Source of the DNA: Kiritimatiellia bacterium | GTDB lineage: Bacteria; Verrucomicrobiota; Kiritimatiellia; CAIVKH01 | Direction: 5' to 3' | Length of the DNA: 64,000 nucleotides | Assembly: GCA_035327305.1 (NCBI GenBank) | Contig: DAOLDL010000002.1 | Span: 19,334-83,333 of the forward strand | Shown: positions 3,820 to 25,740 of the stretch, piece by piece | Numbering within the stretch: the first letter of the stretch is position 1 | Layout: every line of letters starts with the position of its first letter | Notes under the pieces: generated by a model | The model's database searches: none | What the model saw: only the letters and a program-made list of their open reading frames with translations | Told to the model about the DNA's origin: nothing | Program-made: the position numbers and the translations under genes

Positions 3820-5948
3820 ATGCAATTTCCGACCCGTTGTTACTTGATTGTGAAGGAGCAGGCCAATCACCGGCCAACAAAAACTCCGTTAAGAATATCA
3901 TCCTGATTGGAAATCCGAATTGCGGAAAAACCACCCTCTTTAATCGCCTGACCGGGATGCGGCAACGAGTCGGAAATTTTCCCGGCGTCACTGTGGAGAA
4001 GAAGATCGGCTCCATATCGCTTCACGGCACACACGCACAAATAATTGACTTGCCCGGATGTTACAATCTTTCACCACACACAGAAGACGAACAGGTCGCT
4101 TTGGACGCGCTATTCGGCCATAACAATGCACAGCCACCTGACCTTGCAGTTGCAGTCGTTGATGCGCTCAACCTGTCGCGTCATCTTCTGCTGGTCCTGC
4201 AACTGATCGACTTGGAAATTCCAGTCATTCTCGCAGTTAACCGCTGGGACTTGTTGGCCAAAAGTGGCAAATCCATCGATCTCTCGTTGTTATCGGAACG
4301 CCTGGGCATTCCAGTGATTCCCGTATCTGCCGTCACTGGATGGGGTGTGCATGAACTGAAGTCACAAATATTTAATTCCCTTTCCTCACCGAAGGCACCG
4401 CATCCGATATTATGGCCGGATTTTATCAAGAGTATATCAAATGAACTTTCCGAACGTCATCGCGGAACAAGACTTGGCTTCGCGATATGGAGACGCCTGC
4501 TTTTTAGCCGTCAATATACTCGAAGCCTGGAAAAATTAATCACCGCAGAAAATGTACAACCGACCATACAAATGGGTCGCCAGTTAATTGAACAACACGG
4601 TTATCATCCGATGGCCGCGGAAACGTTAATTCTGCGAAAACTTGCGTTCAGAATACTTGAAAACGTTGAAGTCCAATGCACCGATACGAAATATGACGCT
4701 ACGCATAAACTGGATCGCATCTTAACCCATCGGGTTTACGGGGTACTGATCTTTGCCTTGATCATGCCGATCATGTTTTTCATGTTGTTCACCCTTTCTG
4801 CTCCGGTGGTCGAATTACTGGAAATTGCCACGGAACACCTTTCAATACTGTCATCAACCATGGAGTTTTTACCGCCGTGGACAATCAGCCTTATTGCCGA
4901 TGGCATCATCGGAGGCGTTGGCGGTGTCCTGACATTTCTTCCTCAAATCATAATTCTTTTTTTCCTGATTGGTTTGTTGGAGGACTCCGGTTATATGGCG
5001 AGGGCCGCCTGTGTGATGGATCGGTGGATGAGCCGTTGCGGTTTGAACGGGAAAAGCATGGTTCCCATGTTGTCGAGTTTTGCCTGTGCTATTCCCGGTG
5101 TTATGGCCACCCGCACCATTGAACAGCCTAAAACCCGACTTACCACCATGCTGGTTACCCCGTTGATCAGTTGCTCGGCCCGATTACCGGTTTATACGCT
5201 TTTGGTCGGCGCTATAATTGTGCCCAGATATGGACATGCCGCCGGAGCCATTACACTATTTTCCCTGCATCTTCTGGGAATACTTCTGGCATTTCCCGCC
5301 GCATGGTTGTTGAATCGCAAACTTTTCAAAAGCGGACACACCCCGCTGATCCTGGAAATGCCGGACTATTCATGGCCTCGCCTTCGTGATCTGTTTCAAC
5401 GCGTTTACAACAGCGCCTTGTCTTTTGTGCGGCGCGCCGGAACACTGATTGTCCTGGTTTCCATGGTCATTTGGGCTTTGGCCTATTTTCCCGTATCCGA
5501 GAATGAAACGGAATTGGACAAGACAACGCAAATGGAAAACAGTTATCTTGGCCGCCTTGGACACTTGATTCAACCGGTATTTGCCCCGGCGGGATTTGAC
5601 TGGAAAATATCCGTGGGAGTTCTTGCAAGCTTTCCCGCCCGTGAAGTCATCGTTGCAACCATGGGCGTTCTATACCCCGCCCATGAAGGCGATGAAACAA
5701 TTTCCGCCGCATTGCGCAATGCCACATGGGCTGGAGGTGCAAAAGCCGGTCAGCCGGTTTTTACCATTCCAACGGCCGTGGCACTGCTGGTATTTATCGC
5801 CTTATGTATGCAATGCGCCGCGACATTGGTGACGATCGCCCGGGAAAGTGCGTGGCGTTGGGCGCTCGGGGTATATACTGTTTATACCGCGATTGCCTGG
5901 CTCGCCGCGGTGATTACATATCAGTCGCTGTCGGCGTTTGGCTTGTAA
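3816..5948 (+). CDS. feoB: Ferrous iron transporter FeoB (N-terminal G-domain plus membrane permease)
   Basis: G1 motif IILIGNPNCGKTTLFN about 20 aa after the chosen start. Gate and permease regions are typical of FeoB. The start is placed at the in-frame ATG 3816 that overlaps the feoA stop, rather than the upstream 3759. Confidence 0.9.
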   Translation: MNAISDPLLLDCEGAGQSPANKNSVKNIILIGNPNCGKTTLFNRLTGMRQRVGNFPGVTVEKKIGSISLHGTHAQIIDLPGCYNLSPHTEDEQVALDALFGHNNAQPPDLAVAVVDALNLSRHLLLVLQLIDLEIPVILAVNRWDLLAKSGKSIDLSLLSERLGIPVIPVSAVTGWGVHELKSQIFNSLSSPKAPHPILWPDFIKSISNELSERHRGTRLGFAIWRRLLFSRQYTRSLEKLITAENVQPTIQMGRQLIEQHGYHPMAAETLILRKLAFRILENVEVQCTDTKYDATHKLDRILTHRVYGVLIFALIMPIMFFMLFTLSAPVVELLEIATEHLSILSSTMEFLPPWTISLIADGIIGGVGGVLTFLPQIIILFFLIGLLEDSGYMARAACVMDRWMSRCGLNGKSMVPMLSSFACAIPGVMATRTIEQPKTRLTTMLVTPLISCSARLPVYTLLVGAIIVPRYGHAAGAITLFSLHLLGILLAFPAAWLLNRKLFKSGHTPLILEMPDYSWPRLRDLFQRVYNSALSFVRRAGTLIVLVSMVIWALAYFPVSENETELDKTTQMENSYLGRLGHLIQPVFAPAGFDWKISVGVLASFPAREVIVATMGVLYPAHEGDETISAALRNATWAGGAKAGQPVFTIPTAVALLVFIALCMQCAATLVTIARESAWRWALGVYTVYTAIAWLAAVITYQSLSAFGL

Positions 5949-14814: not shown

Positions 14815-17502
14815 TTACATCCCCGCAAGCATGCGTGATAGTTTTTCGATTTTTTCAACCATGGTTGATTCGTTGGCCCTGGTTTGCTCCACTACTTCCG
14901 GTTTTGCCTTGGCCATGAATTTTTCGTTGGCCAGCATGGCCCGGGTTTTTACAAGGCTTTGTTCGGCAAGTTGGATTTCACCGGCAAGGCGTTTCTTCTC
15001 CGCCTCGATATCTATACCGGCCATCGACATGAAAATTGTACCGCGACTGCACAGGGCACTGGGCATAGGACCCTGCGGCTCATAACTCGAATCAATGGTC
15101 AACGTTCCGGACTTTAACAGCGAAGTAATACCGGAAGTATCGTCACGGAACAAAGCTTCGTCTTCACTGCTGGTCGGCTTAATGACAAAATCCATTTTCT
15201 GTCCGGGTGGAATTTCATAATCGCCACGCATGGTGCGACCGGCCCGGATCAACTCGTGCTTGCCGTCCACATATAGGACATATGGCTCGGCAAGATTTCG
15301 CAGTGGGCTATCGTTTTCGAGTGGCCATTCCGCATGAAGGATACTTTCACTTTCAGCGCCAAATCCAAAGGCGTGCCATAATTCCTCGGTCAGGTATGGC
15401 ATGAGCGGATGAAGCAATCTCAAGGAACGGGAGAAAACGTAAAGCATAATCCGCAACACTTCATGTTTGCGATCCTGATCATCGCCATAAAGTGATTCTT
15501 TCGCATATTCAAGATACCAGTCGCAAAACTCGTGCCACATGAAATCGTACAACACCTTGGCGTAATCGTTGAATCGATAACGCATCAGGCAATCTTCAGC
15601 GGCTTTTGCCGCATCCTGTACGCGCGCGACAATGTGCCAGTCATCCGGTCGCCAATTATGAGGATTTAAAGTCATCCCGGACGCGGTGATGCCTTCCCTG
15701 TCGAGGTTCATTTGCATGAAGCGCGCGGCATTCCAGATTTTCGTTCCGAAATTGCGCCCGATCTCGAATTTTTCCTTAGACACATAGACATCCTGACCGG
15801 TCGCGGTCAGCATGATCAAACTGAAGCGGAGCGCATCCGCACTGTACTCATTGATGATGTCGAGCGGATCAATGGAGTTCCCGAGGCTTTTACTCATCTT
15901 ACGGCCCTGGTTGTCACGCACCGTGCCGTGAATGTAGACTTCACGGAATGGGATGTCCCCCATGAACTCAAACCCCGCCATGATCATCCGGGCCACCCAG
16001 AAAAAGATAATTTCCGATGCCGTTGCCAGAGAGTGCGTAGGATAATAAAATGCCAGATCGGGATTTTGTGCGAGACGCTGATCCTTCAACTCCCCTTTGG
16101 GCCAGTCAAATACGCTGAACGGCCATAGCCAGGAAGAAAACCAGGTGTCGAGTACGTCTTCATCCTGGCGTATTCTGGACGAGTTACATTTTTTACATGC
16201 ACCTGGTTGACCGCGATCCGCCCATTCATACGCGCAGTCATCGCAGTAAAACACCGGAATCCGGTGCCCCCACCAAATCTGCCGGGAAATGCACCAGTCG
16301 CGAATATTCTCCATCCACTCGATATAAACTTTGTTCCATCGATCCGGAATAAAGTTGATCCGGCCATCTTTTACAGCGGCCAACGCCGGCTCGGCGAGCG
16401 GCTTCATCTTTACAAACCATTGCGGTGATAACCTCGGTTCCACTATTTGGTGGCACCGGTAACAATGCCCCACGGCATGTGGATGATCCTCCACCTTCGC
16501 CAAAAGTCCGGCGGCAGACATATCATCCATGATTTTCTTCCGACACGCAAACCGTTCCAATCCCTGATACGGGCCGGCTTCTTCGTTCATGTGTCCATCG
16601 TCGGTCATGACATTGATCATGGGAAGATTGTGGCGTTGTCCCATGGCGAAATCGTTCGGATCGTGTGCGGGCGTCACTTTAACACAACCGGTTCCAAAGG
16701 CCGGATCAACAAAATCATCGGCGATCACCGGGATTTCACGTCCGAGAACCGGCAGGATCAGCATTTTGCCTACCAGGTCCGCGTAGCGCTCATCCTTGGG
16801 ATTCACGGCCACCGCCGTGTCACCAAGATACGTTTCAGGACGCGTCGTGGCCACCGTTACAAAGCGACCGGTTTCTCCTTTCACCGGATAGCGAAAGTGA
16901 TAGAGCTTGCCTTGAACACTTTGATGTTCGCTTTCCTCGTCAGACAGAGCGGTTTCGCAACGCGGACACCAGTTAATGATGTATTTACCGCGATAAATCA
17001 GCCCTTTGTCGTAAAGGCGAACGAATACCTCCTTCACCGCGTTGCTCAATCCCTCATCCATGGTGAAGCGTTCGCGATCCCAGTCGCAAGCGCAACCAAG
17101 CCGCTTCAATTGTCGGATAATGGTCCCGCCGTATTGTTCCTTCCACTCCCAGACGCGTTCGACAAATTGCTCGCGACCGAGGTCGCGCCGCGATTTGCCC
17201 TCATCTTTTTTCAGTGCTCGTTCCACCACGTTTTGCGTGGCGATACCCGCATGATCGGTGCCGGGAACCCACACACTGTTGCGGCCCTGAAGTGAACGCC
17301 AACGGATCAGAATGTCCTGAATGGTATTGTTCAAGGCATGCCCCATGTGGAGGATGCCGGTGACATTCGGAGGAGGAATCACAATACAAAAAGGATCGCC
17401 GCCCTTGCGATGATCACGTGAAGCCACCTTATGGTCCAGCCAGAATGCGCTCCACTTTTCTTCAATAGCTTTGGGGTCGTAATTTTTCGGTAATTCACTC
17501 AT
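14815..17502 (-). CDS. valS: Valine--tRNA ligase
   Basis: Class I motifs [16 protein letters not shown] and KMSKSLGN. 895 aa with the C-terminal coiled coil typical of ValRS. Confidence 0.95.
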
Positions 17503-17647: not shown

Positions 17648-19237
17648 TTACGCTTTGCCGGATCTTTTCTGTTCATCGAGGAACAATTTATATTCCACGC
17701 TGTCGACCAAGGCCTCCCACGAAGCTTCGATCAAGTTTGTAGAAACGCCGACCGTTCCCCACGTCTTATCGCCATCCGAAGATTCGATCAGCACCCGGGT
17801 TTTTGCGGCAGTGGCTTCTTCCGGATCGAGAATACGAACACGGTAATCAACCAAATGTACATCCTTGATACTCGGATAAGCCGCCGACAAGGCTTTTCGC
17901 ATCGCATCATTCAAGGCATCAACCGGTCCATCCCCCTCTCCCACGGTATGCAGGACGTCACCATTGATGCGGAGTTTGACCGTCGCCTCGGAAATGCATG
18001 GCTCTTCGGCATGACGCTTTTCAACAATTACCCGGAATCCTTCCAATGAGAAGAACGGCTTGTGCGCCTTCAGCACTTTCTGGATCAAAAGCTTGAAAGA
18101 TGCCTCCGCCGCCTCGAACTCGTAGCCCTTCTTTTCCATGACCTCGAGTTCCTTCAGGATGTTCTTCACCTCGGGTGATTTCTTGTCGAGCGAAAGCCCC
18201 ATTTCCACCGCCTTGAGGAAAACATTGCTGGTTCCCGACAATTCCGAGATAAGCACCCGTCGCTGGTTTCCAACGGATTCCGGGGTGATGTGCTCAAAGC
18301 TATGCGGATTCTTGTTTACGCCGTCGACGTGCATGCCGGCTTTGTGAGCAAACGCGCTGTGACCGACAAACGCGGCTTTGTCATTCGGGCGCACATTGGC
18401 CATCTCGTACACGAAGTCCGCCACGGTTTTGAGCTGACCCATTTTTTCCGGTGAGCTTAAAACAGAGTACCCCATCTTCAGGCCGAGATTGGGTATGATG
18501 GAGCACAAATTGGCGTTGCCGCATCGTTCGCCAAACCCGTTGATGGTGCCTTGCACATGCATCGCGCCGGCTCGAATCGCTTCCAGCGAATTCGCCACCC
18601 CCAGTTCCGAGTCGTTATGGGTATGAATACCGACGTTACCGCCGATCTGCGAAATCACGTCACGGGTTATGTCACCCACTTCAAAGTAAGGTGTTCCGCC
18701 GTTGGTGTCGCATAATACGATCCGGTCCGCGCCGGCTGACTTTGCGGCCCGAAGTGTCGCCAGCGCATGGGCCGGCGAATCTTTATAACCGTCAAAGAAA
18801 TGCTCGGCATCATAAATGACTTCACGTCCGTTTTCCTTGAGAAACCGGACGGTATCAAAGATCATGGCCCGGTTTTCATCTTCTGTGGTGCGCAGGACTT
18901 CATGAACATGAAAGGCCCAGCTTTTTCCAAAGATGGTGACAACCGGAGTGTCGGCTTCGATCAAAGCGCGGGATCCCGCATCATCCGCCGCCTTGATACC
19001 GGCGCGGCGGGTACTGCCGAACGCGGCGATACGGGCATGCTGAAGACGCTCGCGCTTGATCGCATGGAAAAACTCCATGTCCTTGGGGTTGGATGCGGCA
19101 TAACCGCCCTCGATGTAGTCGACGCCTAATTCATCCAGAATTTTTGCGACACGGATTTTGCCGACACTGGAAAAGGAAATGCCCTCACCCTGGGCGCCAT
19201 CGCGCAGAGTCGTATCATATATTTCTATTTTTTTCAT
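17648..19237 (-). CDS. cimA: (R)-citramalate synthase / 2-isopropylmalate synthase family protein (long CimA type with LeuA-dimer regulatory domain)
   Basis: IYDTTLRDGAQ, HTHNDSELGVAN, and a C-terminal LeuA_dimer-like region. The start is set at MKKIEIY (19237), with AGGAGCAGGTT upstream. Its position in the thr operon suggests threonine-independent Ile biosynthesis. Confidence 0.75.
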   Translation of the reverse strand: MKKIEIYDTTLRDGAQGEGISFSSVGKIRVAKILDELGVDYIEGGYAASNPKDMEFFHAIKRERLQHARIAAFGSTRRAGIKAADDAGSRALIEADTPVVTIFGKSWAFHVHEVLRTTEDENRAMIFDTVRFLKENGREVIYDAEHFFDGYKDSPAHALATLRAAKSAGADRIVLCDTNGGTPYFEVGDITRDVISQIGGNVGIHTHNDSELGVANSLEAIRAGAMHVQGTINGFGERCGNANLCSIIPNLGLKMGYSVLSSPEKMGQLKTVADFVYEMANVRPNDKAAFVGHSAFAHKAGMHVDGVNKNPHSFEHITPESVGNQRRVLISELSGTSNVFLKAVEMGLSLDKKSPEVKNILKELEVMEKKGYEFEAAEASFKLLIQKVLKAHKPFFSLEGFRVIVEKRHAEEPCISEATVKLRINGDVLHTVGEGDGPVDALNDAMRKALSAAYPSIKDVHLVDYRVRILDPEEATAAKTRVLIESSDGDKTWGTVGVSTNLIEASWEALVDSVEYKLFLDEQKRSGKA

Positions 19238-19305
19238 AACCTGCTCCTGTTTCCCGGCTTGATCCATTCGCCAATTCCATGTTCAGACGTGGCGTCTGCC
19301 TGTGT

Positions 19306-20553
19306 TTATTTTTTCTTAACGGGTCTCTTTTTTACAACCTGTTTATCCAACTCAAATATTTTATGCAACGTCTGCACGGCCTTGTCGGCATGCGCTTTTT
19401 TAATCACCACGGAAATCTTGATTTCCGAGGTGGCGATCATGCTGATGTTGATTTTTGCCTTGGCCAATGCGTCAAACATGCGAAATGCGACGCCGGAATG
19501 ACTGCGCATCCCCACGCCTACGATGCTGATCTTCGCAATATCTTCATCGATGTCGGGCTGACGCTCGCCGAGATGGCCTTCAAGCGCTTTCAAGGTTTTG
19601 CGGGTTTTATTGACTTCGGTGGCCGGCACCGTGAAGGAAATATCCGTAACGCCCATGGCGCTGACGTTTTGCACGATCATGTCCACGTTGATGCTGGCGG
19701 CGGCCAGCTCCTTGAATAATTCTGCGGCTACACCGGGTTTATCCGGCACCGAAGAAATGGTAACTTTTGCCTGCCCTTTATCAGCGGCCACACCACGCAC
19801 TACAATGTCTTCCATATTCTTAACCTCTTCTCTAACCAATGTTCCGGGTTTTTCCACAAAGCTCGACATGACTTCCAGGGTCACGCCATATTTTTTCGCA
19901 AATTCCACGGCTCGCGATTGCAGGACTTCCGAGCCGAGGCTCGCGAGCTCCAGCATTTCATCGTAGGCAATTTCATCCAACTTCACAGCCTCCGGAACCA
20001 CCCGGGGATTTGCCGTGTAAACGCCTTCGACATCTTTCAATATCTGGCATCGGTCGGCCTTTAACGCCGCGGCCAGCGCCACTGCAGTGGTATCCGATCC
20101 CCCGCGACCAAGCGTGGCGATATCCTGATTGGGGTTCAACCCCTGAAAGCCGGCGATAATGACGATCTGGTTTTTCGCAAGTTGTTCGAAGATGCGCGTA
20201 GGTTTGATGTCGCGAATCTTCGCCTTGGTGTGCACGGCATCGGTAAAGATTCCAGCTTGCGGACCGCTCATGGCGATGGCATCCGCCCCCATGGCATGTA
20301 ATGCCATGGTCAGCACGGCCGACGATATTTGTTCGCCGCTGGCCATCAACATATCCAGCTCGCGTTCACTCGGATCGCTGGTGATTTGTTTCGCCAAGGC
20401 AATCAAATCGTCGGTGGTATCTCCCATTGCGCTCACGACCACCACAACTTTGTTGCCTTGATTGCGGGTGTTCAAGATGCGTTGAGCAACCCTGCGCATG
20501 CAATCGGCATCCGCCACCGAACTGCCTCCATATTTTTGTACTATCAATGCCAT
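19306..20553 (-). CDS. lysC: Aspartate kinase with C-terminal ACT domains
   Basis: IVQKYGGSSV, VVVVSAMGDTTD, and tandem ACT domains. Confidence 0.9.
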   Translation of the reverse strand: MALIVQKYGGSSVADADCMRRVAQRILNTRNQGNKVVVVVSAMGDTTDDLIALAKQITSDPSERELDMLMASGEQISSAVLTMALHAMGADAIAMSGPQAGIFTDAVHTKAKIRDIKPTRIFEQLAKNQIVIIAGFQGLNPNQDIATLGRGGSDTTAVALAAALKADRCQILKDVEGVYTANPRVVPEAVKLDEIAYDEMLELASLGSEVLQSRAVEFAKKYGVTLEVMSSFVEKPGTLVREEVKNMEDIVVRGVAADKGQAKVTISSVPDKPGVAAELFKELAAASINVDMIVQNVSAMGVTDISFTVPATEVNKTRKTLKALEGHLGERQPDIDEDIAKISIVGVGMRSHSGVAFRMFDALAKAKINISMIATSEIKISVVIKKAHADKAVQTLHKIFELDKQVVKKRPVKKK

Positions 20554-20559
20554 ATACGT

Positions 20560-21702
20560 TTAGTCTCCCAATAATTTACTTATGCAACGATGAGCGGGCA
20601 AGCGGCCCAAACCGCCCCCATGGCACGAAACCTCGTCCCAGCGCCCGACCTTGTCGGGCGAAACATTGTTGCCGGCCAGCGCCACCGGTATCTGCTCCAT
20701 GAGTTGGCCCTCTTCCGGCATGGCGACCAACATGATACGCGTATCTGGAATACACTCAACTGCTTGTGTGATACGGCTCAACACATGAATGTCCAGCCGA
20801 TCCAACGCCTTTACTTTTTCCACGCCTTCACCGAACCGACCGCCTTCCAGCGGGGCTTCAACATAAACCACGGTGATTTCATGCCGTGCCATCACGTCCG
20901 CCAACTCATCCACGCCGATCAATTCGGGTTGCACTGAATCAGCCCATACATCGCCCAGATGCTTGACTGTCATACGACATAACGTGCCAATTCCCCGCCC
21001 GAGCGGACTATTGGTCACCATCGCCGAAATCAGTGGCGCCCCGATGAAGGGACGACTGATCTTTGCCGACGGACCGCCCGCCCAGAGCCAAAGTGCGTTG
21101 GCGGGATTTTCCCCGAGATCAACACGCACATCGTTGATGCTTTGACGAGCAAGGCATTCAGCCGCGGCTCGCATGAACTTCGCACGGGCGGACAATGTAT
21201 CACCATCCTCCGGCAAGCGGACCCCCGGAGCAGGAAATTCACCTGCGTCTGAAGCAGTCTCCGCCTTATCAAAACGGACAGCAACCCGGCCTCTGCCGGT
21301 AATCGTGATCGTTGCGCCATGCGATTTGGCCACATCTGCCAACGAGTCCACCAACCATGTAGTTTCGTCCAAGCTTAAACCGGTCACCCGGCTTTCGCGG
21401 ACCTCTGATCCGTCGCATGTGACAAAATTTCCACGGTAACAATAACCGTTTCCTGGCGCGCCCTCCACTGGACCGCGCACCATGGTTTTCGCTTCTTCTG
21501 AAGCAATTCCCAAAACGATACCGGTCATTTCCGGAGCGGTTGTGCCTGCATGATCGGCTGGCCACAACAGATAGCCGCCCACACCGCGGCGAACCAACGC
21601 CGTGGCATGAATATTCCGGGCAAGTTGCAAAGGGGTTGAACCCTCCAACTCATCGGAAGGCAAATCCGCCGCACCTTCATAAATGACCAATACATATTTC
21701 AC
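20560..21702 (-). CDS. Archaeal-type cofactor-independent phosphoglycerate mutase (ApgM) family protein; from its operon position, a candidate non-orthologous homoserine kinase
   Basis: ApgM-like N-terminus MKYVLVIYEGAADLP and a metalloenzyme-superfamily C-terminus. The gene sits 6 nt after hom and 6 nt before lysC. Confidence 0.65.
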   Translation of the reverse strand: MKYVLVIYEGAADLPSDELEGSTPLQLARNIHATALVRRGVGGYLLWPADHAGTTAPEMTGIVLGIASEEAKTMVRGPVEGAPGNGYCYRGNFVTCDGSEVRESRVTGLSLDETTWLVDSLADVAKSHGATITITGRGRVAVRFDKAETASDAGEFPAPGVRLPEDGDTLSARAKFMRAAAECLARQSINDVRVDLGENPANALWLWAGGPSAKISRPFIGAPLISAMVTNSPLGRGIGTLCRMTVKHLGDVWADSVQPELIGVDELADVMARHEITVVYVEAPLEGGRFGEGVEKVKALDRLDIHVLSRITQAVECIPDTRIMLVAMPEEGQLMEQIPVALAGNNVSPDKVGRWDEVSCHGGGLGRLPAHRCISKLLGD

Positions 21703-21708
21703 GGAACA

Positions 21709-23007
21709 TCAATTAAAATCTTCCACACGGAAACGCACGGTCGGAGCCTTGATCGAGTCCAACGCATCAATTTGCGCCAATGCCTCCCGGCAATCTCTTT
21801 CCTTGGCCGCGTGGGTCATCATGATCATTTCCGCCGATCCCTTGTCGGAACCGTCCTTCTGGATCATGCTGGCAATGCTGATGCGGTGATCGCCAAGAAT
21901 TTTGGCAACTCTGGCCAGCACCCCGGGTTTATCTTCCACCGACAAACGCAGATAGTACCGGCAGGTGATATCATCCACCGACAACATGGCGGGCTTTTCG
22001 CCTTCCGGAATAAATGCCGGCAAATGATGCCGCGATTGCGTAGCAAGCTGACGGGCCACGGCCGCGACATCGCTTAACACCGCGCTTGCCGTCGGGAGCC
22101 GTCCCGCGCCCCGTCCATAATAAAGCGTGTCGCCCACGATATCGCCGGACACCATGACCGCATTGAATACACTGCTGACCGATGCAATCATGTGGGTTGC
22201 CGGAACCAGCGCCGGGTGAACCCGGACGCTAACCGCGTTGTCCTGCTTTTTGACGACCGCCAGCAATTTAACCCGGTAGCCCATATCCGCCGCATAAGCA
22301 ATATCTTCGCGGGCGATACCTCGTATGCCTTCCACGTACATGGAAGAAAGCGGTACCGGGAAACCGTAAGCCAAAGAGGCCAACAATGCGGCTTTGTGCG
22401 CAGTATCGTGACCATCAATATCAAGGCTTGGCTCCGCTTCGGCGAATCCCGCGTCTTGAGCTTCGCGCAGAACCTTGTCAAACGGCAGACCTTCCAGTTC
22501 CATCCTGGTGAGGATGTAATTGCAGGTGCCATTGAGGATGCCATAAAGATTTGGAATGTGATTGGCGATCAGTCCATCGCGCAAAGCCTGTATGATCGGG
22601 ATTCCGCCCGCCACACTGGCTTCAAACCGGAGATCCACTTTGTTTTCGTCGGCAAGGGCAAACAACCCCGCGCCGTATTCGGCCAGAAGTTTCTTGTTGG
22701 CCGTGACCACGGGTTTTCCCATTTTGAGCGCCTCGGTGACCAGTTCACGGGCGATTCCTACGCCGCCAATCAATTCGATGATGATGTGAACAGAAGGGTC
22801 TCGTATGACCGACATCGCGTCTGTGGTAAGCACGGACCGATCAACCACCACGCCGCGATCGCGCTCAAGATCGAGGTCGGCGATTTTGCGCAAGACCAGA
22901 CGAACCCCGGAGCGGCTGGCAATCAGATCGCCATTACGTTGCAGACCTTCCACTACCCCGGCGCCGACGGTGCCGAAACCCAGTAATCCCAATCCTATTT
23001 CTTTCAT
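21709..23007 (-). CDS. hom: Homoserine dehydrogenase with C-terminal ACT domain
   Basis: GLGLLGFGTVGAGV NAD-binding N-terminus, catalytic core, and C-terminal ACT. SD AGGAAG lies 7 nt before the ATG. Confidence 0.9.
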   Translation of the reverse strand: MKEIGLGLLGFGTVGAGVVEGLQRNGDLIASRSGVRLVLRKIADLDLERDRGVVVDRSVLTTDAMSVIRDPSVHIIIELIGGVGIARELVTEALKMGKPVVTANKKLLAEYGAGLFALADENKVDLRFEASVAGGIPIIQALRDGLIANHIPNLYGILNGTCNYILTRMELEGLPFDKVLREAQDAGFAEAEPSLDIDGHDTAHKAALLASLAYGFPVPLSSMYVEGIRGIAREDIAYAADMGYRVKLLAVVKKQDNAVSVRVHPALVPATHMIASVSSVFNAVMVSGDIVGDTLYYGRGAGRLPTASAVLSDVAAVARQLATQSRHHLPAFIPEGEKPAMLSVDDITCRYYLRLSVEDKPGVLARVAKILGDHRISIASMIQKDGSDKGSAEMIMMTHAAKERDCREALAQIDALDSIKAPTVRFRVEDFN

Positions 23008-23030
23008 ATTCGCTTCCTGTAAAATGTTAC

Positions 23031-23055
23031 AAAAAAACCCCTCTCTAAAGAGGGG
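23031..23055 (-). terminator. Rho-independent terminator in the hom leader (attenuator terminator)
   Basis: Minus strand reads CCCCTCT-TTAG-AGAGGGG followed by TTTTTTT. It ends 23 nt upstream of the hom ATG on the same strand, so hom transcription must read through it. Confidence 0.8.
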
Positions 23056-23083
23056 TTGTCAAACAGCAGACGCCGCCAGCCCC

Positions 23084-23134
23084 TCAAGAGTCCGAGGTAG
23101 TTACAATAATTGTAATGGCAGTCGTGGTTTTCAT
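23084..23134 (-). CDS. thrL: Threonine/isoleucine-rich leader peptide (thrL-like) of the hom operon attenuator
   Basis: Minus-strand ORF ATG AAA ACC ACG ACT GCC ATT ACA ATT ATT GTA ACT ACC TCG GAC TCT TGA encodes MKTTTAITIIVTTSDS (6 Thr, 3 Ile in 16 codons). The stop overlaps GAGGGG, which can pair with the terminator 5' arm CCCCTC. A weak SD AAGG lies upstream. Confidence 0.65.
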   Translation of the reverse strand: MKTTTAITIIVTTSDS

Positions 23135-23424
23135 TAATAAGTGCCTTATAATAGCGATTTTACTTGGCACGACAAGTGCGAATTTGAGCATAAAAACCAT
23201 CATTTTTCCACGATAAATACTGAAAAAGGATTTAGATATACGGACCATGCACCTGATTTTGCACCGTAAAATCGGTGTTGGTATTGAGCAAACCATCAAA
23301 ACCTGGATCCCGATTTCATTGGCGAACGAGGACCCGATAAGGCCGGAGATGATAAAGAAACGAATCCCAGACGATTATGCGTAACAAGATGACACAGTCA
23401 TTCTTGTCTGTGTATTTGTCTGTT

Positions 23425-25740
23425 TTAGTTTGCCTGCATTGCTTTCAAAACATTTTCCGCGGTGAAAGGTGATGTGCGCAAACGAACACCCACCGCATTG
23501 TAAATTGCGTTAGCGATAGCCGGGAGTGGACCATTAATGCAAATTTCCGATACGCTTTTGGCGCCATACGGTCCGGTTTTTTCGTAGCTCGGCACCAGGA
23601 TCGTCTTGATCACCGGTTTGTCCCGCATCGAATATATTTTGTAATGCTGAAAGCCGGCGTTCAACATCTTGCCTTTGGGACTGAACAAATATTTTTCGGT
23701 CAGGGCATAACTGATTCCGTTAAGTACCCCACCCTCGGTTTGTCCTTCTGCAAGCTTGGGATTGATCGCGGTTCCGCAATCCACCGCGGCAACATATCGA
23801 AGGACCCGGACACGACCCGTGAGCGTATCAACTTCCACTTCGGTAAAATGCGCTGAAAATGGCGGCGGAGATTTATGCGATATCCTCGAGGAAACCGCAC
23901 CGATCTGAAATTGATCGGTTCCGTAAAGCGCCCGCAAGGCAATTTCACTGAATGTGACCGATCGCCCATCGGCGGATACCGCCTTGTTGTCGGCCAGCTT
24001 GATTTCCTTGCCCGGACATTCCATCATGGCGCTTGCCACTTCAATCATTTGTCGGGCCACCTTTTCCGCCACGTTTTTAACCGCCATACCGCTTAAATAT
24101 GTCGTACTGGAAGCATACGCCCCGACATCAAACGGCGTCATATCCGTGTCAGATGAATAAACAATGATCTTGTCCATATCGCAACCGAGTGTCTCCGCCG
24201 CAATCTGGGCAAGCACGGTATCGCTACCCGTGCCAAGATCGGTTGCCCCCATGAGCAGATTAAACGATCCGTCATCGTTTATTTTCAGGGAGGCCGCACC
24301 CATGTCGATTTCGGGGATACTCGATCCCTGCATCAACGCCGCCATACCAATACCACGGCGGAACCGCCCCTTCTTGTCCTGCCATCTTCCCCGTTTCTTC
24401 CAGCCGATCTCCTTTGCGCCGAGTTTGATGCACTTATCAAGTTCGCAACTTCCAATCGATTGCTCGACGCCGGCCTTGCCTTCACCCAATGCGCGAAACA
24501 CCGGCGATGTTTCGCCCGTGCGAATAGCATTCTTGCGGCGAAACTCCAACGAATCCATTCCGATGGCCTCCGCCATTTCATCCATTTGACAATCAATCGC
24601 AAACGATGATTGCGTGGCGCCATATCCTCGATACGCTCCGCCAACCGGAAGATTGGTGTAACACGATTCTCCAACAAAATGAATGTTCGGGGTCCGGTAT
24701 AGCGGCAATATTTTACTGCCGCTGTTACAGACCACGGTCAAGGCATGCGATCCATAAGCGCCGGTATTGGTAATGCAATCGAGACCGACGGCGGTAATGG
24801 TTCCATCTTTTTTAACACCGGTGCGAACCCGCATCTTTTCCGGGTGACGAGTCCGGGAAGAGACGAATTCCTCTTCGCGGGTGTATTTCCAGAACACGGG
24901 GCGACCGGTTCGCATTGCCATCAGCGCCACCACATCTTCCAAAAGCACTTCCTGTTTTACACCAAATCCACCGCCGATGCGCGGCTTGATTACACGAATC
25001 TTTCGCACGGGAATATCCAATGTCTGGGCTACGATTCGACGTACATGAAATGGGACTTGCGTGCTGGTGGTGATGATCACCCGGCCGTCAGCGGCGAGGT
25101 GCGCCATTGAGACATGTGGTTCGATGGGACAATGCTGGGCATAGTCGGTATAGTATTCGTGATCCATTGCAACATCCGCTTCGCGCAAGCCCGCTTCCAA
25201 GTCGCCGACATCCATAGCCACCCGGGCGGCGAGATTCCTGGCCGGTTCGTAAGGAACGGGGATCGGAATATGCGCCTCGGGTTCATCGTGAATAACCGGT
25301 GCGCCGGGCTTCAGCGCTTCCTCTATGGACAACACTGCTGGCAAAACCTCGTACGTGACCTTTATTTTCTTCAAGGCCTCGATAGCTTGTTCGGCGGTTT
25401 CGGCCGCCACGGCGGCAACACGATCACCCACATGCCGCACTTTGTTGTCGAACATGAACGTATCATAGGGTGATGGCTCGGGAAATCCCTGCCCGGCGGT
25501 TGTGTGTGCGATTCTGGGGACGTTTCCATGATGCAGAATAATATGTACCCCGGGCATTTTATCCGCCTCGCTGGTATCTATCGAGGTGATGCGAGCGTGG
25601 GCGTGTGGACTCCACAACATTTTCACAATCAAGGCATCGGCAGGCTTGAAATCGGCCACAAACATCGGCTTACCAGTGGCAAGTGAGAGGGAATCAATTT
25701 TTTTGACGGACTTGTTGACAACCGTGAAGTTCTTTTTCAT
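23425..25740 (-). CDS. Molybdopterin-dependent hydroxylase large subunit (xanthine dehydrogenase / aldehyde oxidoreductase family)
   Basis: 771 aa with Ald_Xan_dh_C and molybdopterin-binding-like regions (GGGFGVKQEV, TQVPFHVRR). Starts 4 nt inside the Fe-S subunit gene end. Confidence 0.85.
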   Translation of the reverse strand: MKKNFTVVNKSVKKIDSLSLATGKPMFVADFKPADALIVKMLWSPHAHARITSIDTSEADKMPGVHIILHHGNVPRIAHTTAGQGFPEPSPYDTFMFDNKVRHVGDRVAAVAAETAEQAIEALKKIKVTYEVLPAVLSIEEALKPGAPVIHDEPEAHIPIPVPYEPARNLAARVAMDVGDLEAGLREADVAMDHEYYTDYAQHCPIEPHVSMAHLAADGRVIITTSTQVPFHVRRIVAQTLDIPVRKIRVIKPRIGGGFGVKQEVLLEDVVALMAMRTGRPVFWKYTREEEFVSSRTRHPEKMRVRTGVKKDGTITAVGLDCITNTGAYGSHALTVVCNSGSKILPLYRTPNIHFVGESCYTNLPVGGAYRGYGATQSSFAIDCQMDEMAEAIGMDSLEFRRKNAIRTGETSPVFRALGEGKAGVEQSIGSCELDKCIKLGAKEIGWKKRGRWQDKKGRFRRGIGMAALMQGSSIPEIDMGAASLKINDDGSFNLLMGATDLGTGSDTVLAQIAAETLGCDMDKIIVYSSDTDMTPFDVGAYASSTTYLSGMAVKNVAEKVARQMIEVASAMMECPGKEIKLADNKAVSADGRSVTFSEIALRALYGTDQFQIGAVSSRISHKSPPPFSAHFTEVEVDTLTGRVRVLRYVAAVDCGTAINPKLAEGQTEGGVLNGISYALTEKYLFSPKGKMLNAGFQHYKIYSMRDKPVIKTILVPSYEKTGPYGAKSVSEICINGPLPAIANAIYNAVGVRLRTSPFTAENVLKAMQAN

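Follow-up and report, generated by a model that had tools for sequence, protein, structure and literature searches.

In Escherichia coli, the thrL leader (Rfam family Thr_leader, RF00506) is regulated by threonine (Thr) and isoleucine (Ile), and it is the closest described counterpart of the element that we report here: a short Thr/Ile-rich open reading frame (ORF) followed by an intrinsic terminator, located just before the homoserine dehydrogenase gene hom in a stretch of 64,000 nucleotides (nt) from a Kiritimatiellia bacterium (contig DAOLDL010000002.1). The whole stretch is referred to below as the window, and positions are counted from its first letter. We consider it highly probable that the element is a ribosome-mediated (leader-peptide) transcription attenuator of the thrL type, acting on an operon that consists of hom, a gene resembling the HomK homoserine kinase gene, lysC and cimA. 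A preliminary description of the window had proposed E. coli thrL-type logic at this site, and the proposal is now supported by a match in layout, by conservation of the Thr/Ile-rich frame, and by mutually exclusive RNA pairings in silico.

The resemblance to thrL extends to several features. Both elements encode a short Thr/Ile-rich peptide (compare MKRVVAIITITTTGGS in the related locus L012), and in both the G-rich last codons together with the UGA stop copy the 3' arm of the terminator (GGUGCGGGCUGA in thrL). After a spacer of about 25-30 nt, each has an intrinsic terminator directly in front of a gene for aspartate kinase or homoserine dehydrogenase, and the sensing of both Thr and Ile that is established for thrL is also the logic proposed here. 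The two elements differ in other respects. There is no detectable homology in sequence or structure, the Kiritimatiellia leader has no Shine-Dalgarno sequence, is predicted to be near-leaderless and has a weak 1:2 hairpin, its operon is hom, HomK-like, lysC and cimA instead of thrABC, and the Ile codons match cimA directly. The host, moreover, is in the Planctomycetes-Verrucomicrobia-Chlamydiae (PVC) group. With the RF00506 model we found no match in the window at the gathering threshold (55 bits) or, for the segment 22950..23450, at E values up to 10, and none in the related loci L001, L012 and L060 at E values up to 1; E. coli thrL, used as the positive control, scored 122.1 bits. The element probably works like thrL but is not a member of the Rfam Thr_leader family.

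The trpL, hisL, leuL, ilvL and pheL leaders of Proteobacteria belong to the same mechanism class, in which ribosome position picks the antiterminator or the terminator, as do the trp, ilv and leu leaders of Actinobacteria and the his and leu leaders of Firmicutes; these other attenuators have different sensor codons and unrelated sequences. Bacteroidetes/Chlorobi and Thermotogales were reportedly added to the range of such systems by Vitreschak et al. in 2004. The published range that we could trace covers mostly Proteobacteria, Actinobacteria and some Firmicutes (PMC2965389, PMC1262725, PMC5794164), the last having been added by Naville and Gautheret, according to whom leader-peptide systems were until then known only from the first 2 phyla (PMC2965389). 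Our full-text literature search returned no paper joining Kiritimatiell* or Verrucomicrobia with leader peptides, a result that leaves room for reports elsewhere in the literature.

T-box leaders and amino-acid riboswitches are also 5' premature terminators that control amino-acid genes according to supply. However, their sensor is a structured RNA to which tRNA or a ligand binds, whereas the Kiritimatiellia leader has no conserved structure upstream of its stop codon, carries a coding signature, and matches no Rfam family. A covariance-model search of the whole window gave no Rfam family at threshold; sub-threshold matches to P9, anti-hemB and NsiR1 (E values up to 10) fell on the terminator hairpin and were rejected as generic matches to terminators.

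The leader ORF and its conservation

The leader ORF on the minus strand encodes the peptide MKTTTAITIIVTTSDS, in which 6 Thr and 3 Ile make up 9 of the 15 non-initiator residues; the 16-codon ORF of this composition that had been noted in the preliminary description was borne out to the base. In the long ORFs of the window, Thr and Ile account for 5.0% and 6.9% of residues, respectively (together 11.9%), and at that background the binomial probability of at least 9 Thr/Ile residues in 15 is 1.2e-5. Only 2 of the 896 ATG-initiated ORFs of 10-30 codons in the window contain 50% or more Thr plus Ile.

Judged by its Hom homologues, the organism falls among Kiritimatiellia metagenome-assembled genomes. 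For comparison, we assembled 160 hom loci from Kiritimatiellia-type metagenome-assembled genomes and metagenomes (80 loci from species-representative genomes and 80 from metagenomes; loci are cited below by L numbers), which reach about 5 kb to each side of hom, locating hom and its neighbors by tblastn. Evaluable loci were the 153, the window counted, that had at least 150 nt of upstream sequence, and leaders were settled by automatic search plus inspection. In 29 of the 153 loci, representing 26 distinct sequences, a short ORF stands 24-38 nt ahead of a terminator whose T-run lies just before hom; the metagenomes contributed few close relatives. A neighbor-joining tree of Hom groups the window with the 15 leader-bearing relatives nearest to it in a single clade, here called the main clade. 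Other leader-bearing groups (L041/L111; L038/L101/L102/L147; L116; L126; and L047/L060/L061/L078/L137) are scattered among lineages that have neither the ORF nor the terminator.

Among the 16 closest leaders, Thr and Ile together account for 123 of 234 residues (53%) in the leader frame, and for 4% and 1% in the other 2 frames. When these leaders were aligned by anchoring on the stop codon, mean entropies at sensor codon positions 1, 2 and 3 were 0.74, 0.93 and 1.43 bits, respectively; the first two positions are kept and the third varies, with Thr codons ACC, ACG, ACT and ACA and Ile codons ATT and ATC all in use. Every unique leader examined retains its ATG, its open frame and its stop, and most have AAA or AAC as their second codon. 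The stop codon followed by GGGG is retained in the 16 closest leaders, including the one locus (L008) in which TGA has become TAA, a change that preserves the stop yet loses one antiterminator base pair. In the closest leaders the last Thr of the run lies 3, sometimes 4, codons from the stop, or about one ribosome half-footprint. RNAalifold analysis of the leaders gave the terminator as the sole consensus structure, with none conserved inside the ORF. Frame-specific Thr/Ile enrichment, variable third positions, the kept ATG and stop, and the lack of structure within the ORF together argue for selection acting on the translated Thr/Ile-rich frame, not on an RNA motif. Except in composition, the peptide changes fast among relatives, and those of the main clade include MKKTTVITITTTSCA, MKTKTTTTTIRTTAYS, MNSFTTITTITTTGVT and MNNTTTIITITTGGGS in addition to that of L012. 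Relatives, to which the preliminary description had looked for a Thr/Ile-rich short ORF, thus carry one in conserved form.

The terminator and its alternative pairings

Only 2 matches to strict terminator criteria (a stem of at least 6 base pairs (bp) with at least 4 GC pairs, followed by T5 or longer) were found on the 2 strands of the 64-kb window. One of them is within an ORF; the other, the only strict intergenic match, is the hairpin that lies 28 nt ahead of an ORF start in the hom leader region. By pattern scan, this hairpin was also the best terminator-like site in the segment 17000..26500. In 15 related loci, 15 of the 21 strong terminators lay within 260 nt before hom, and hom loci without the short ORF were also without a comparable terminator. 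The distance from the leader stop to the terminator CCCC is 28 nt and that from the T-run to the hom ATG (23007) is 23 nt; these spacings, the terminator itself, and the GAGGGG at the stop codon had all been placed correctly in the preliminary description.

The sequence GAGGGG, designated region 2, copies the core of the terminator 3' arm and is near-invariant across 17 aligned leaders. In folds of nascent transcripts cut before the 3' arm, the probability that the terminator 5' arm pairs with GAGGGG was 0.96 for the window and 0.75 or greater for 12 of the 16 closest leaders. The preliminary description had envisaged a 6-bp antiterminator; the pairing stands, and its extent is now refined to a 36-nt stem-loop that encloses an inner hairpin, with a predicted energy of -16.5 kcal/mol (z-score -2.59 relative to shuffles). 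The full leader folded with z-scores from -2.6 to -3.3 relative to dinucleotide shuffles. Median energies in the clade for pairings 1:2, 2:3 and 3:4 were -5.2, -16.0 and -13.9 kcal/mol, respectively, and in the window the 1:2 hairpin CCUCGG/UUGAGG, at -6.2 kcal/mol, was seen in the full-length minimum-energy folds. Terminator and antiterminator are mutually exclusive pairings, the alternatives that the preliminary description had proposed to compare.

To mimic a ribosome, we also masked a stretch that began 15 nt before the first nucleotide of the A site and ended 10-12 nt past it. Placing the A site at the final Thr/Ile codon of the run left the 2:3 pairing intact in 15 of the 16 closest leaders, whereas placing it on the last 2 codons or the stop abolished the pairing in all 16. 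Three loci (L001, L004 and L083) showed the classical behavior, in which 2:3 was disfavored without a ribosome and rose with the ribosome on the sensor codons.

The promoter-like site and the start of the leader

A sigma70-like sequence upstream of the leader ATG, TTGTCG-N16-TATTAT, is present as previously noted, although its 9/12 match to the consensus is, taken alone, no better than those obtained with shuffled sequences. The match gains weight because the motif is conserved in position: of 148 loci, 66 have CTTG[TAC]-N15-18-TAnnnT in the 250 nt preceding hom, as compared to 4.8 expected from mononucleotide shuffles. In leader-less lineages the same motif sits directly ahead of hom. The end of the -10 box is 13 nt before the leader ATG in the window (23135..23153, minus strand), and 8-9 nt before it in L004 and L041. 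Among the 18 leader-bearing sequences that match the pattern, this distance is 12-13 nt in 11, 8-9 nt in 2, and 21-24 nt in 4. Assuming a transcription start about 7 nt past the -10 box, the 5' untranslated region (UTR) of the leader mRNA would be 0-7 nt long in most lineages.

Proposed mechanism

The arrangement would operate as follows. Transcription would begin about 6-8 nt before the leader ATG, and a ribosome would work through the 16 leader codons as RNA polymerase moves on over the following 70 nt. When Thr-tRNA and Ile-tRNA are plentiful, the ribosome would reach the last codons and the UGA and cover GAGGGG; with region 2 covered, CCCCUCU would pair with AGAGGGG and transcription would stop at U7, 23 nt before hom. 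When charged tRNA-Thr or tRNA-Ile is scarce, the ribosome would stall on one of the 9 Thr/Ile codons among codons 3-13, at least 13 nt upstream of GAGGGG, so leaving region 2 free. On emergence of the terminator 5' arm, free region 2 would pair with it in the 36-nt antiterminator, and polymerase would read through into hom.

Where transcription starts, that the leader is translated (here without a Shine-Dalgarno sequence) and that read-through responds to tRNA charging are inferences from the sequence, and all uncertainty about the attenuator rests in these 3 steps. Several observations weigh against the proposed mechanism as just stated. The 1:2 hairpin is weak, its sequence is not conserved, and 2:3 outcompetes it when the transcript is truncated. 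The antiterminator needs no ribosome to form in most sequences, so that an untranslated leader may allow read-through instead of termination. Full-length RNA at equilibrium favors 1:2 plus the terminator, and most ribosome masks leave the terminator favored in the equilibrium fold; switching is reproduced only when folding is followed co-transcriptionally, in truncated transcripts, and must therefore be kinetic. Switching in the E. coli trp leader is likewise kinetic. Covariation of the 2:3 and 3:4 helices was not above that of shuffles, because GAGGGG and CCCCTC are nearly invariant; the covariation check that had been suggested previously was thus uninformative, while conservation across hom upstream regions was upheld, and the pairing potential is conserved only through conservation of sequence. 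No Shine-Dalgarno sequence precedes the leader ATG, whereas hom has AGGAAG, and this absence together with the distance of only 8-13 nt from the -10 box in most loci suggests that translation of the leader peptide is leaderless or near-leaderless. Finally, several distant variants are poor in Thr/Ile codons (for example, MKITATA and MRRARMTVVITGAGSS), and in the group L047/L060/L061/L078/L137 the competing helix overlaps the terminator by only 2-4 nt.

Alternative explanations

Some of these same points would suit a premature terminator that is run by a protein or a small RNA acting on the ACG/AUU-rich stretch or on GAGGGG, with the short ORF merely incidental. The missing Shine-Dalgarno sequence, the very short predicted 5' UTR and an RNA switch that lacks proof by covariation are all in keeping with such a regulator, as is the recurrence of ACG and AUU triplets in the leader. 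Recurring triplets of this kind loosely resemble the sites of triplet-repeat proteins, such as TRAP targets. An incidental ORF would not, however, be expected from what the relatives retain: Thr and Ile third codon positions vary freely with the first 2 kept, the enrichment is confined to the leader frame, ATG, frame and stop persist throughout (with the single change from TGA to TAA), and the last Thr codon always precedes the stop by 3-4 codons. As there is also no Rfam family match, we regard control by a protein or small RNA as improbable. A modified form of the attenuator, in which the terminated leader RNA or its peptide acts in trans as well, is additional to rather than exclusive of the thrL-type mechanism. 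There is precedent in rnTrpL and peTrpL of Sinorhizobium (PMC7298713, PMC7968998), and termination would yield an abundant RNA, about 110 nt long, carrying a stable hairpin at its 3' end; yet a peptide that changes so quickly apart from its composition is poorly suited to such a role, and we think it unlikely that trans action forms part of the system.

The hairpin could instead be unlinked to hom, either as the terminator of the upstream xanthine-dehydrogenase-family gene, which lies on the same strand (23425..25740) with no other terminator, or as part of an independent small RNA or small-protein gene, since promoter, ORF and terminator could make a self-contained transcript of about 110 nt. 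Linkage argues the other way. The terminator is 367 nt past the upstream stop, with the promoter-like site between, and the upstream neighbor is not conserved among leader-bearing loci: the xanthine-dehydrogenase-family gene is found in the window only, no leader-bearing relative has it, and similarity between upstream ORFs is shared by just one pair of leader-bearing relatives. In these relatives the leader unit is nevertheless always 20-130 nt before hom, and it therefore belongs to hom; as described above, hom loci that lack the short ORF lack a comparable terminator as well. The hairpin was accordingly rejected, on synteny, as the terminator of the upstream gene, and a unit independent of hom is in our judgment very improbable.

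The thrL-type attenuator is best described as belonging to a new, phylum-specific family of Thr/Ile leader-peptide attenuators. Its occurrence in Kiritimatiellia, within the PVC group, extends the documented range of leader-peptide attenuation, a textbook mechanism, and a conserved attenuator implies close coupling of transcription and translation in a little-studied phylum. It also supplies the operon of hom, the HomK-like gene, lysC and cimA with a concrete cis-regulatory annotation. As it lacks a Shine-Dalgarno sequence and its 5' UTR is predicted to be very short, it lends itself to testing whether leaderless translation can drive attenuation.

Variant leaders

Absence of the unit was seen once in the main clade. 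L005 (3680..3945) is the sole member without a leader; promoter, leader and terminator are all missing, and hom begins 21 nt after the stop of another gene. In 4 other loci (L008, L009, L012 at about 4926..5000, and L013), an extra 85-128 nt separates the attenuator terminator from hom, and these inserts hold long GC-rich or repeat-like hairpins, such as GTCGTCCTTGTCGTCGTCCTCGAAACGGAGGAACGATGACGAGGAGGACGACGAGGACGG in L012.

Distant leaders (L038 4887..4981, L101 448..548, L147 27..127, L041 4871..4974, and L126, from about 135 to 20 nt upstream of hom) keep the stop followed by GGG or GAGGG, and the CCCCTC terminator. Their sensor codons differ and include Val and Met, as in MMRLTVIMTMAGSS, MRRARMTVVITGAGSS, MNRAGIVLVTMTGGS and MVIARTTGMTITHDE. 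In L038, L101 and L147, a strong hairpin, GGCAGC...GCUGCC, lies across the stop codon. A further sub-clade (L060 4885..4987, L061 4885..4987, L137 2885..2987 and L047 2329..2434) has the leader MRLKRTIMGTITTRRGSA and the terminator GCCCCGC/GCGGGGC; the overlapping helix of this group is 12-13 bp long, pairs GCGGGAGCGC with GCGUUCCCGC, and abuts the terminator.

These variants, together with the short distance from promoter to ATG, allow a broader view that we put forward only tentatively, as it has a good deal less in its favor than attenuation itself: the unit may be a leaderless or near-leaderless, self-contained sensor of about 110 nt that is loaded with ribosomes at its 5' end and whose sensor codons have been re-written between lineages. 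On this view, which we would call possible and not probable, one terminator/antiterminator chassis might be tuned to Thr/Ile in the clade of the window and elsewhere to mixtures with Val and Met (for example, MMRLTVIMTMAGSS and MNRAGIVLVTMTGGS).

The hom operon and neighboring genes

Positions of the leader elements and of the genes around them are collected in Table 1. Profile matches confirmed the earlier assignment of a Thr/Ile operon behind the leader, comprising hom, an apgM/HomK-like gene, aspartate kinase and citramalate synthase, with gaps between successive genes of 6, 6 and 38 nt. The operon appears from these assignments to serve Thr synthesis through hom, the HomK-like gene and lysC, and Ile synthesis through cimA, which encodes the first step of the threonine-independent isoleucine pathway. 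The Ile codons of the leader fit the operon directly, since cimA makes Ile without threonine.

Table 1. Features of the hom leader and of the surrounding genes in the window
Feature	Position	Strand	Remarks
Promoter-like site TTGTCG-N16-TATTAT	23148..23175	minus	-35 at 23175..23170, -10 at 23153..23148
Leader ORF MKTTTAITIIVTTSDS	23084..23134	minus	16 codons plus TGA; ATG 23134..23132, stop 23086..23084
Thr/Ile sensor codons (leader codons 3-13)	23128..23096	minus	
Region 1, CCUCGG in codons 13-15	23092..23097	minus	May pair with UUGAGG at the stop as a weak anti-antiterminator
Region 2, GAGGGG overlapping the stop codon	23080..23085	minus	Copies core of terminator 3' arm; complementary to CCCCTC
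Antiterminator stem-loop (regions 2:3), GAGGGG...CCCCUC	23050..23085	minus	36 nt, encloses inner hairpin
Intrinsic terminator (regions 3:4), AACCCCUCU-UUAG-AGAGGGGUU	23031..23057	minus	9 bp plus U7, -13.7 kcal/mol
Terminator hairpin as DNA, AACCCCTCT-TTAG-AGAGGGGTT	23057..23036	minus	T7 at 23037..23031
hom Shine-Dalgarno sequence AGGAAG	23018..23013	minus	
hom, homoserine dehydrogenase with ACT domain	21709..23007	minus	Pfam Homoserine_dh, NAD_binding_3, ACT; NF004976 534 bits (cut-off 205)
apgM-family paralogue, candidate HomK/ThrB2 homoserine kinase	20560..21702	minus	Starts 6 nt after hom stop
lysC, monofunctional aspartate kinase	19306..20553	minus	NF005155 581 bits (cut-off 346)
cimA, citramalate synthase	17648..19267	minus	TIGR00977 728.6 bits (cut-off 450); HMGL-like and LeuA_dimer domains
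valS	14815..17502	minus	145 nt after cimA
Xanthine-dehydrogenase-family gene upstream of the leader	23425..25740	minus	Same strand as hom

The second gene of the operon scored 116.6 bits with TIGR00306 (apgM) and 96.5 bits with TIGR02535 (HomK/ThrB2; cut-off 446.3), both scores being far below the cut-offs. The specificity position of the HomK/ThrB2 family is a Glu (E299 of BT2402). The gene for this alternative homoserine kinase usually neighbors hom (GapMind 2026 preprint), and the apgM-like gene fits the family by its position beside hom; it is a candidate member whose membership is unproven. The gene diverges fast, with 52% identity to its counterpart in L001, as compared to 89% for Hom and 92% for LysC and CimA. 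It lies between hom and lysC in all sufficiently long leader-bearing loci of the main clade except L011; outside the main clade it was seen in that position in one locus only, L044.

A pattern scan found no terminator-like site between cimA and valS, and the order hom, aspartate-kinase-like gene, cimA, valS is conserved in many Kiritimatiellia-type loci. Canonical intrinsic terminators are very rare in the window, at 2 strict matches in 128 kb of strand sequence; most of its genes must end transcription in some other way. We found no second attenuator in the window: there was no other intergenic terminator, and no amino-acid operon among the 10 further large ORFs that were annotated.

Upstream of the leader, the segment 23425..33377 (minus strand) contains genes for a xanthine-dehydrogenase-family molybdoenzyme (large, 2Fe-2S and FAD subunits), 2 amidohydrolases, and a protein with domains like those of dihydropyrimidine dehydrogenase and of pyridine-nucleotide-disulphide oxidoreductases. 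Judged by these gene assignments, the segment may be a purine or pyrimidine catabolism cluster.

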